From the NCBI GenBank assembly GCA_965216315.1, contig CBDCFN010000015.1:64001-128000 (forward strand): a DNA stretch of 64,000 bases, given 5' to 3'. Shown in pieces: positions 23,078-24,058 of this stretch. The notes below the pieces were generated by a model. That model saw nothing but the letters and a program-made list of their open reading frames with translations, made no database searches and had not been told where the DNA came from. Source of the stretch: a bacterium (lineage in GTDB: Bacteria > UBA10199 > 2-02-FULL-50-16 > JAJFLM01). The position numbers and the translations under genes were made by a program. How positions within the stretch are numbered: position 1 is the stretch's first letter; every line of letters begins with the position of its first letter.

Positions 23078-24058
23078 ATGAATATCGCCGCCCTGCAGCA
23101 CATGGCCCGTATGTTTACCGGTGTCATTTTGCCCGGCCATACCCTTGGCGCCATTCAACAGCACAATGACATGCATCGGAGGACCCTGGGGATGGCGCTC
23201 CATGCCGGTCTGCAACCGACTCAGGCTCATCTGATTACGGTGAGCATACCGAATGACGTCGGGGTCGGTTTTCTGTTTCAAGAGGCCACTGACGGACTCA
23301 ATCAGGCCCAGTTGCTCTTGATCGGCCGCAGCCACCAACCCGAAGCCCTGCGCTTTCAGAATCCCATCCCCCAGGAACTCCATCGCATTTCTCTCATGTC
23401 CTACTTATCCGGACAAGATGAAGCACCACCCATTCATCAATATGCTGCGCTCGCTCATCTAACTCCAATGCTGCAGGCCGCTATCGGCGAAGCCGACATC
23501 GAGGCATTGCAAGCACAACTTTTTGATTATGCCCTGATGCCGAAACGTCCGCTCGGCGTCGTGCCTAGTATTGAGATGACACCAGGGCCTGCGTTGGAAA
23601 TCTTTGATACGCTGATCGACCATATTCAATTTCATGAGCAAAAAGGACTGAACACCCGGATCCGTCATGCCCTCACCGCACAGGGCATTCATTTTGTCGG
23701 TCAATTGGTGCGTCTGTCACCTTCCGCCTTGCCTGGAGGACAACAAACACGGCAAGCAATCTTGAATTATCTTCAGGCTCACGACTTGAGCCTCGGCATG
23801 GACAACCGGAACTGGCAAAAGCCGGGCCGCCACCACCGTGGCTTGATGCAAACACCGCTTACGTCTCTTTCGTTCACTTACGTAGGAGGGATGAATCAAG
23901 CGTTGCAACGACATCTCGTTAATGCCGGCGCAGTTACATTGGAAGATGTCCTGCACCTCAAGAAAACGGATCTCCTCAATAGGCCCTACTTTAATATTGG
24001 GCATTATGACACGATCCGAAATTTCCTGCGCTCACTCGGACTTGACTTTGACAAGTAG
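23078..24058 (+). CDS. Orphan protein with two C-terminal RNA polymerase alpha-CTD-like domains
   Basis: LNTRIRHALTAQGIHFVGQLVRLS...ILNYLQAHDLSLGMDNRNW aligns by eye with RpoA CTD; second copy LQRHLVNAGAVTLEDVLHLKKTDLL...IRNFLRSLGLDF. Confidence 0.75.
   Translation: MNIAALQHMARMFTGVILPGHTLGAIQQHNDMHRRTLGMALHAGLQPTQAHLITVSIPNDVGVGFLFQEATDGLNQAQLLLIGRSHQPEALRFQNPIPQELHRISLMSYLSGQDEAPPIHQYAALAHLTPMLQAAIGEADIEALQAQLFDYALMPKRPLGVVPSIEMTPGPALEIFDTLIDHIQFHEQKGLNTRIRHALTAQGIHFVGQLVRLSPSALPGGQQTRQAILNYLQAHDLSLGMDNRNWQKPGRHHRGLMQTPLTSLSFTYVGGMNQALQRHLVNAGAVTLEDVLHLKKTDLLNRPYFNIGHYDTIRNFLRSLGLDFDK

Follow-up and report, generated by a model that had tools for sequence, protein, structure and literature searches.

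The domain at the C-terminal end of RNA polymerase (RNAP) α subunits (RpoA α-CTD; PF03118; residues 249-329 of E. coli α) is a textbook domain, and it also occurs in stand-alone proteins, such as those reportedly described by Iyer and Aravind in which an α-CTD is combined with σ70 region 4 and HARE-HTH. According to the accessible parts of the published accounts, UP-element DNA is bound by the 265 determinant (residues 265, 268, 294, 296, 298, 299 and 302; PMC10853779; also PMC1874639), AR1 of CRP is served by the 287 determinant (285-289, 315, 317 and 318; PMC10853779) and σ region 4 by the 261 determinant (257-259 and 261; PMC10853779).

Two further described systems come close to the regulon and export apparatus treated here. 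In the available part of the report on Bdellovibrio bacteriovorus, FliA is a σ28 factor turned global regulator, with an attack-phase consensus of TTAAG-N16-CCGATA (92/140 promoters; PMC3627812). The accessible text on Myxococcus xanthus describes a needleless type III system (T3SS*) that works with the Kil/Tad pilus and whose effectors have been proposed, not identified (PMC12075869); this export apparatus has no linked secretin and occurs in a relative of deltaproteobacterial predators.

Here, we describe P0001, a protein encoded in a 64,000-nt stretch of bacterial DNA (the window; Table 1), in which α-CTD-derived domains likewise stand outside RpoA. Unlike RpoA, P0001 carries two tandem copies, has no α-NTD and lies outside the α operon; unlike the α-CTD/σ-4/HARE-HTH proteins, one of which is present in the related genome G089, it is without Sigma70_r4 and HARE-HTH and bears a lineage-specific N-terminal domain (N-domain). 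The stand-alone α-CTD genes of G089 and G066 and a small one in G051 differ from it further in having no regulon promoter. As far as the available report on Bdellovibrio FliA goes, the regulon in this genome resembles it in its -10 box, its size and the likely promotion of a σ28-type factor to global regulator; however, the upstream box (GCAACTT rather than TTAAG), the shorter spacer and the lack of a detectable flagellin set it apart. As in M. xanthus according to the accessible text, the type III export apparatus of this genome has no linked secretin; the differences are the σ28-like gene inside the cluster, the ~250-site regulon and the lack of a detectable Flp pilin. Finally, Rac of φKMV-like phages, T7 Ocr and gp39 are foreign proteins that disturb bacterial transcription, a likeness to the role proposed below for P0001; in the excerpts available, these attack or mimic DNA and, among the matches listed, none copies the α-CTD, whereas the P0001 gene is chromosomal.

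Gene and genomic context

The ORF (23078-24058, + strand) is open throughout its 326 codons, and its codon-position GC content (0.64/0.38/0.57) is similar to that of rho and smc. A contig of run X1, from a separate assembly, spans positions 23011-24300 with 0 differences; read support for the locus comes from four runs, representing at most two samples of one study, possibly the source study itself. The gene is located downstream of rho and is convergent with a NAGPA-family gene, and the related loci that we compared gave no sign of a conserved neighbourhood. On the + strand, neither a σ70 promoter nor a terminator above chance was detected at the ends of the gene. The genome encodes one normal full-length rpoA (G000:C16:537609-538640), separate from the P0001 gene.

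Between rho and the promoter lie two short repeats (22900-22975 and 23001-23040) with 39 and 20 genome copies, respectively (BLASTn E<1e-5, self included). Both repeat kinds had a several-fold higher depth and were also seen elsewhere among the contigs of these metagenomes.

Table 1. Features discussed in the text, with positions in the window unless a contig or locus is named
Feature	Position	Strand	Remarks
rho, upstream neighbour	21363..22901	+	Pfam Rho_N, Rho_RNA_bind, ATP-synt_ab
Two interspersed repeat elements (context, outside the gene)	22900..23040	.	Between rho and promoter
Upstream box GCAACTT, inferred -35	23045..23051	+	σ28-like promoter
Downstream box CGAAGA (consensus CGATAA), inferred -10	23066..23071	+	6-7 nt before ATG
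ORF of P0001	23078..24058	+	326 aa: N-domain, linker helix, two α-CTD-derived domains
N-terminal domain, residues 1-115	23078..23422	+	Predicted two helices, then at least four strands; no named family
Linker, residues 116-170	23423..23587	+	One predicted long helix; pLDDT <40; much shorter in P0002
α-CTD-derived D1, residues 171-250	23588..23827	+	R265, G296, core and LGM..W..P tail kept
α-CTD-derived D2, residues 251-326	23828..24055	+	Fold kept, DNA-contact residues lost
Non-flagellar type III cluster	C16:339-357 kb		32 ORFs scanned; annotated to C16:358000
998-aa regulon protein	L111:1-2994 = G000:C16:91477-94470	-	Leader, SF2 helicase, σ70 region 4
RelA/SpoT synthetase, GGDEF protein, hybrid histidine kinases, receiver (leader-bearing)	L125:14916-16214, L126:43-3042, L114:1-3132, L117:1-1920, L144:8133-10376		Same promoter
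Second copies of PFK, GDH, RtcB	L135:1-1368, L149:15078-16487, L143:1-1452		
Second copies of malic enzyme, class-V aminotransferase, biotin carboxylase	L119:9860-11959, L121:14270-15895, L145:4765-7764		

Identity and fold of D1 and D2

A preliminary description, made from the letters alone, had read P0001 as a stand-alone protein with tandem α-CTD-like domains, the second more diverged than the first, and had named the lack of a PF03118 or helix-hairpin-helix (HhH) match as grounds for dropping that reading. Both kinds of match were found. At E≤1, D1 matched no Pfam family other than PF03118 (E value 0.0014, 18.8 bits), a score below the Pfam gathering score of 23.8 bits that marks membership. 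All 13 PDB sequences matching D1 at E≤10 are RNAP α (best E value 0.042), and with a profile of 15 α-CTDs, built without P0001 and its homologue P0002, D1 scored 35.3 bits (iE 1e-8) among 18,055 sequences.

The case for D2 is indirect. By itself, it reached 3.6 bits with the same 15-member profile, which is not significant, and its alignment scores against the RpoA of its own genome and against D1 were matched by 116/1000 and 335/1000 shuffles, respectively. Its score against D2 of P0002 was matched by only 1/1000 shuffles, and D2 of P0002 is a clear α-CTD (33.1 bits with the profile); hence, homology of D2 to the α-CTD is transitive. In a model built on a nine-row alignment, D1 and D2 fold with the same pattern (pLDDT about 80-90), and modelled D2 superposes on the RpoA CTD with a Z score of 11.4 and an rmsd of 1.5 Å over 69 residues (Z 11.4 to 4mex_A and 10.8 to 1z3e_B, with other HhH/SAM folds at 6.9 or below). 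The Foldseek matches listed to rank 32 are all RNAP α, none at E≤0.001. The D2 model leans to the α-CTD fold, but not independently, because the alignment held α-CTD-like rows; folded without an alignment, P0001 gave a pLDDT of 45 and no usable fold. On these models, both domains are predicted to keep a four-helix HhH fold nearest to the α-CTD, and the earlier reading of tandem copies is thus upheld, by sequence for D1 and, for the more diverged D2, through P0002 and the modelled fold.

Functional surfaces of the two copies

D1 and D2 have the fold and hydrophobic core of the RpoA α-CTD in common, and D1 also its C-terminal LGM..W..P tail, whereas the 265 and 287 surfaces, as far as the available reports define them, are mostly replaced, the 261 surface probably so. 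In E. coli numbering, which we take to be given by an alignment of D1 anchored on R265, only R265 and G296 remain of the seven residues listed for the 265 determinant (2/7), and D2 keeps 0-1/7. Two of the eight listed residues of the 287 determinant in D1 are identical to E. coli. For the 261 determinant as listed, D258 is probably kept in D1, the register being uncertain through an insertion of 6-7 residues ahead of helix 1. The DNA-binding hairpin of D1 is shortened, with four residues missing around it in the alignment to RNAP α; the preliminary description was right in calling the hairpin altered in both copies. In homologue P0002, Tyr replaces R265 in D1. Basic residues outnumber acidic ones in both domains of P0001 (D1, 6 acidic and 7 basic residues; D2, 6 and 9), whereas the RpoA tail of the same genome is acidic (21 and 13).

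Because the Pfam cut-off and both surface comparisons are missed, we regard P0001 as α-CTD-derived rather than as a functional member of the α-CTD family. The preliminary description had proposed an α-CTD decoy that titrates activators, NusA or UP elements in a target cell or its own. Its domain call holds, and action in a target cell gains support from the regulon promoter, the type III-like cluster and the recurrence in the class described below. Conservation of the fold without the known surfaces weakens its sponge model for P0001; a decoy needs native surfaces, and since those listed in the accessible reports are mostly gone (2/7 and 2/8 residues in D1, 0-1/7 in D2), titration of UP elements or CRP is doubtful. 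Class members from G018, G022, G031, G036 and G010, with 5-6/7 DNA contacts, appear to fit such a decoy better than P0001.

Homologues and the N-terminal domain

A protein search with P0001 against 1.84 billion representatives (E≤0.001) returned six matches: P0001, P0002, three proteins of unrelated architecture with one to three α-CTDs each (P0003-P0005) and a repeat artefact (P0006), which we discarded as a homologue. P0002 (302 aa) is a full-length, colinear homologue (25 % identity, pairwise E value 9e-24). P0003-P0005 place extra α-CTDs outside this class too; P0003 (475 aa, from another source) has three α-CTD repeats fused to IF2_N domains. Word-based searches recovered the query only, a full-length orthologue was found in none of 60 other related genomes (two of the same family included), and none of 201 candidate stretches from metagenome contigs gave a further homologue.

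Residues 1-169 have no Pfam match, in agreement with the earlier remark that the N-terminal ~170 aa is not α-NTD-like, and the N-domain corresponds to no Pfam family. It is common to P0001 and P0002 (score reached by 0/1000 shuffles). Its model has a pLDDT of 42-58, which does not establish a fold; the best structural matches (Z score 5.9) were unrelated kinases and inositol monophosphatases and were not usable, and the Atlas gave no usable match for P0002 or for the N-domain of P0008. A single N-domain family for all architectures was rejected: neither pairwise BLAST nor hhalign linked them, nor did an initial leave-group-out search, in which P0001 ranked 21/222. In a larger leave-group-out search, P0001 ranked 1/202 (E value 0.1) and G031a, G031c and G031d were also first among about 200 (E values of these four proteins, 0.06-0.19), while P0002 ranked 29 and the G018 group was not linked. 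These ranks weakly suggest a link between the N-domain of P0001 and the α-CTD proteins of families f9 and f18. Runs of N-domain paralogues in which only one member has an α-CTD were seen in G010 (L030:921-3788) and G051 (L032:2703-3980), that of G010 directly behind a helicase-α-CTD gene.

Promoter and σ28-like regulon

The preliminary description mentioned a 'motif copy 4' without defining it; we take this to be GCAACTT-N14-CGAAGA at 23045-23071, and the motif is real. GCAACTT-N14-CGA[TA]A has 40 genome sites at spacing 14 and 0-5 at each of 15 other spacings, and matrix sites scoring ≥14 number 273 in the genome compared with 17 in a base-shuffled genome. The downstream box is the one known for σ28. 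The P0001 site scores 18.1, and by this motif the gene appears to belong to a σ28-like regulon of about 250 sites in the genome. We infer that the FliA-like σ factor encoded in the type III cluster is the factor for this motif. Genome-wide, the distance from the -10 box to the first ATG is 5-12 nt for 85 of 221 ORFs linked to the motif, so that many regulon messages would have no leader or almost none.

At the protein level, 63 % of 179 motif-bearing long ORFs have at most one charged residue in positions 2-25, compared with 8.5 % of 1360 others, and regulon N-termini are Ser/Thr-rich (typically 0.21). P0001 has one charged residue in this stretch and a Ser/Thr fraction of 0.08. A leader classifier (cross-validated AUC 0.86) scored P0001 at 0.48, a value reached by 18 % of non-regulon ORFs, P0002 at 0.82, 16 relatives at 0.58-0.96 and the motif-less G089 protein at 0.70, leaving P0001 with an ambiguous leader of its own. 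A profile made from the hydrophobic N-termini of six large relatives had no match in this genome.

Type III-like cluster and export route

The cluster at C16 contains SctV- and SctN-like genes scoring above their cut-offs (806 bits against 692 and 620 against 605, respectively) and a FliJ/SctO match over the cut-off; SctD-, SycD-, SctJ-, SctL-, SctQ- and FliA-like genes were matched below the cut-off, and the FliA-like σ gene lies inside the cluster. No flagellin was found in the genome (the control matched in 4/14), and the matches above cut-off indicate a putative non-flagellar export apparatus. SctV-like matches were present in 91/93 genomes of the class, 79 of them over the cut-off. Both secretin matches lie far from the cluster, and no Flp pilin was found in the genome (the control matched in Caulobacter); hence, the analogy with T3SS*/Kil of Myxococcus, as described in the accessible text, is incomplete. 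A needle search gave no match, though its control matched nowhere either. Regulon products are probably exported through this type III-like machine.

Extra α-CTD genes across the class

We searched 73 and 93 genomes of the class (probably UBA10199), together with fetched loci; in this set, the phylum is represented by this class only. The searches identified 32 non-RpoA α-CTD ORFs in 20/93 genomes; weak Pfam matches in G046 and G076 did not pass. Leaving aside two contig-edge ORFs and the second half of one frameshifted gene, 29 were testable, of which 19, from 13 genomes and 8 families, have the promoter within 200 nt upstream and 10 do not; their starts were picked by eye, some after the motif had been seen, and kin are not independent. 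The promoter precedes 179/1539 long ORFs of this genome (12 %) and 0/6 rpoA genes, and, the comparison being with long ORFs, the enrichment may be an effect of orphan genes rather than of the α-CTD.

The architectures comprise a small N-domain with one or two α-CTDs, an SF2 helicase with one to about nine, and poly-α-CTD proteins, besides the α-CTD/σ-4/HARE-HTH protein of G089, which was seen once. The largest (L056:735-6365, L057:1831-6837 and L058, from G090 and G083; 1600-1880 aa) have a hydrophobic N-terminal region, an SF2 helicase and then four to about nine α-CTD repeats. G018 has six N-domain + α-CTD genes; on its contig C1, tandem paralogues combine the N-domain with a near-native α-CTD (L023:3347-7204), and a third paralogue is split by a frame change between the N-domain and two α-CTDs.

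Across 58 extra domains compared with the class RpoA, the core is 62 % identical and the DNA, CRP and σ surfaces 43, 29 and 23 %, respectively; members from the five genomes named above keep 5-6/7 DNA contacts and others none. In a tree of 66 domains, the extra copies sit on branches of 0.2-3.4, compared with at most 0.21 for RpoA; as 5/63 inner branches are supported, the number and source of the captures cannot be read from it. The recurrence itself is observed: this lineage has repeatedly attached copies of the rpoA tail to regulon cargo. A split RpoA was considered for G010, G051 and G083, in which rpoA is absent, and was rejected. Since rplQ and rpsK are absent along with rpoA, these assemblies miss the whole α operon; moreover, G088 contains both a full rpoA and an N-domain gene. 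The G010 assembly is without the α operon (rpoA, rplQ and rpsK) though rated 100 % complete.

Other products of the regulon

Pfam was scanned with 115 of 146 selected leader-bearing regulon proteins (first 1000 residues, E≤1e-5), giving matches for 40 and none for 75. The matches include hybrid histidine kinases, receiver, RelA/SpoT, GGDEF and cyclase domains as well as patatins, a macro domain, a Ser/Thr kinase and an SF2 helicase with σ70 region 4. Several leader-bearing proteins duplicate housekeeping enzymes, the other copy being encoded at a different place in the genome and 24-35 % identical (Table 1). Such cargo would act in the bacterial cytoplasm or on the bacterial wall, and every named module would equally make sense in the cytoplasm of the producing cell.

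The helicase-σ4 protein shares 39 % identity over 155 columns with RpoD of the same genome, from which its σ70 region 4 was copied, and is homologous (E values 1e-19 to 1e-34) to six helicase-α-CTD proteins of relatives (G010, G022, G036, G083 and G090). Both promoter-reading RNAP modules are therefore attached to one cargo family.

Two more regulon-type loci in the window deserve mention. The ORF at 56637-57410 (-) has a phage-lysozyme domain (E value 7e-37) behind a long N-terminal extension and a regulon promoter, with no phage genes around it. The ORF at 1735-3051 (+) and one at G000:C16:2285358-2287289 (-) are regulon-type orphans related to each other (29 % identity over 184 columns), both with a P-loop-like region; a DnaA-like assignment of the former, made by eye, was dropped as it had no Pfam support.

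Possible roles of P0001

Our leading reading, which we hold tentatively, is that P0001 may leave the cell as regulon cargo and influence the transcription of another bacterium via a rewired surface. P0001 would be evolving fast and belong to a regulon that consists mostly of cargo for the non-flagellar type III-like apparatus: the FliA-like σ of the cluster would transcribe the gene from GCAACTT-N14-CGA, the uncharged N-terminus or the N-domain would route the protein to the export gate, and P0001 would enter the cytoplasm of a bacterial prey or host cell, as the bacteria-specific cargo suggests. There, the two α-CTD folds, which would descend from copies of the rpoA tail repeatedly attached to regulon cargo, may engage transcription complexes or promoter DNA through a neutral-to-basic surface rather than as a faithful UP-element/CRP sponge, so that target transcription would be damped or redirected. 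Counting against export are the ambiguous leader, the low Ser/Thr content, the lack of a detectable Flp pilin, the unlinked secretins and the 10/29 extra α-CTD ORFs without the promoter.

Several of these points would also suit a regulator of the producing cell, confined to one life stage under σ28-like control and acting on its own RNAP or promoters as regulon feedback or housekeeping damping, and the Bdellovibrio FliA regulon, in the available part of the report, includes regulators (PMC3627812). The leader score of 0.48 is ambiguous, the promoter and domains make sense without export and the gene directly follows rho. We nevertheless consider a regulator of this kind rather unlikely: a conserved polymerase usually has conserved regulators, whereas P0001 has no full-length orthologue in 60 other genomes and, in the search of 1.84 billion representatives, a single homologue (25 % identity), with long branches, and 16 relatives are leader-like (0.58-0.96). 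Decay and reuse of the fold alone would explain the lost functional residues equally well. Such reuse, in which the α-CTD serves as a small, stable repeat or grips nucleic acids non-specifically and the N-domain does the work, on a target that may be something other than transcription, would account for a core better conserved than the surfaces (62 % against 43/29/23 % in 58 domains), for copy numbers from one to about nine, for the neighbouring N-domain paralogues without α-CTD in G010 and G051 and for the basic charge of D1 and D2 beside an acidic RpoA tail; we judge it unlikely, given that σ70 region 4 has been captured into the same regulon and helicase family, which points to promoters, and that several class members keep 5-6/7 DNA contacts. 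A classical decoy, with native surfaces that sponge UP elements, CRP-type activators or NusA, could draw on the fold predicted for both domains and on R265, G296, the basic helix 1 and the LGM..W tail of D1, but the surface counts given above (determinants as listed in the accessible reports), the loss of R265 in P0002 and the shortened hairpin make it improbable. Finally, although P0001 is a near-singleton, a decaying gene or chance ORF without present function is very hard to credit beside an intact 326-codon frame with a normal codon pattern, the colinear full-length homologue P0002 and a well-placed promoter.

Returning to exported cargo, a broader possibility, about which we remain doubtful, is that the whole uncultured class delivers copies of its own promoter-reading parts (α-CTDs, either single or arrayed in up to about nine copies, and σ70 region 4, often on an SF2 helicase) via a needle-less type III apparatus to take over the transcription of other bacteria, beside exported copies of kinases, ppGpp/c-di-GMP synthases and metabolic enzymes. 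If so, one bacterium would run another from inside, much like a phage or an intracellular pathogen, and among these effectors P0001 would be a late form with a rewired surface. Promoter-reading modules make sense only in a bacterial cytoplasm and are therefore informative on the lifestyle of the class. Stand-alone α-CTDs are not new; the repeated placement of α-CTDs and σ region 4 in the secretion-linked regulon of one class was not found in full-text searches of the openly accessible literature. Effectors of the needle-less type III systems of predators have, in the accessible text, been proposed, not identified (PMC12075869), and the promoter motif described here yields a candidate list that repeatedly includes copies of both modules by which RNAP reads promoters. 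Should P0001 stay in its own cell or only reuse the fold, it would merely add to the orphans that have borrowed a domain. The graded series of copies, near-native in G018, G031 and G022 and fully eroded in P0001 and G010, could show whether free α-CTD arrays reprogram transcription and which α-CTD surface matters, and the helicase-σ4 protein is probably a better test object than P0001.
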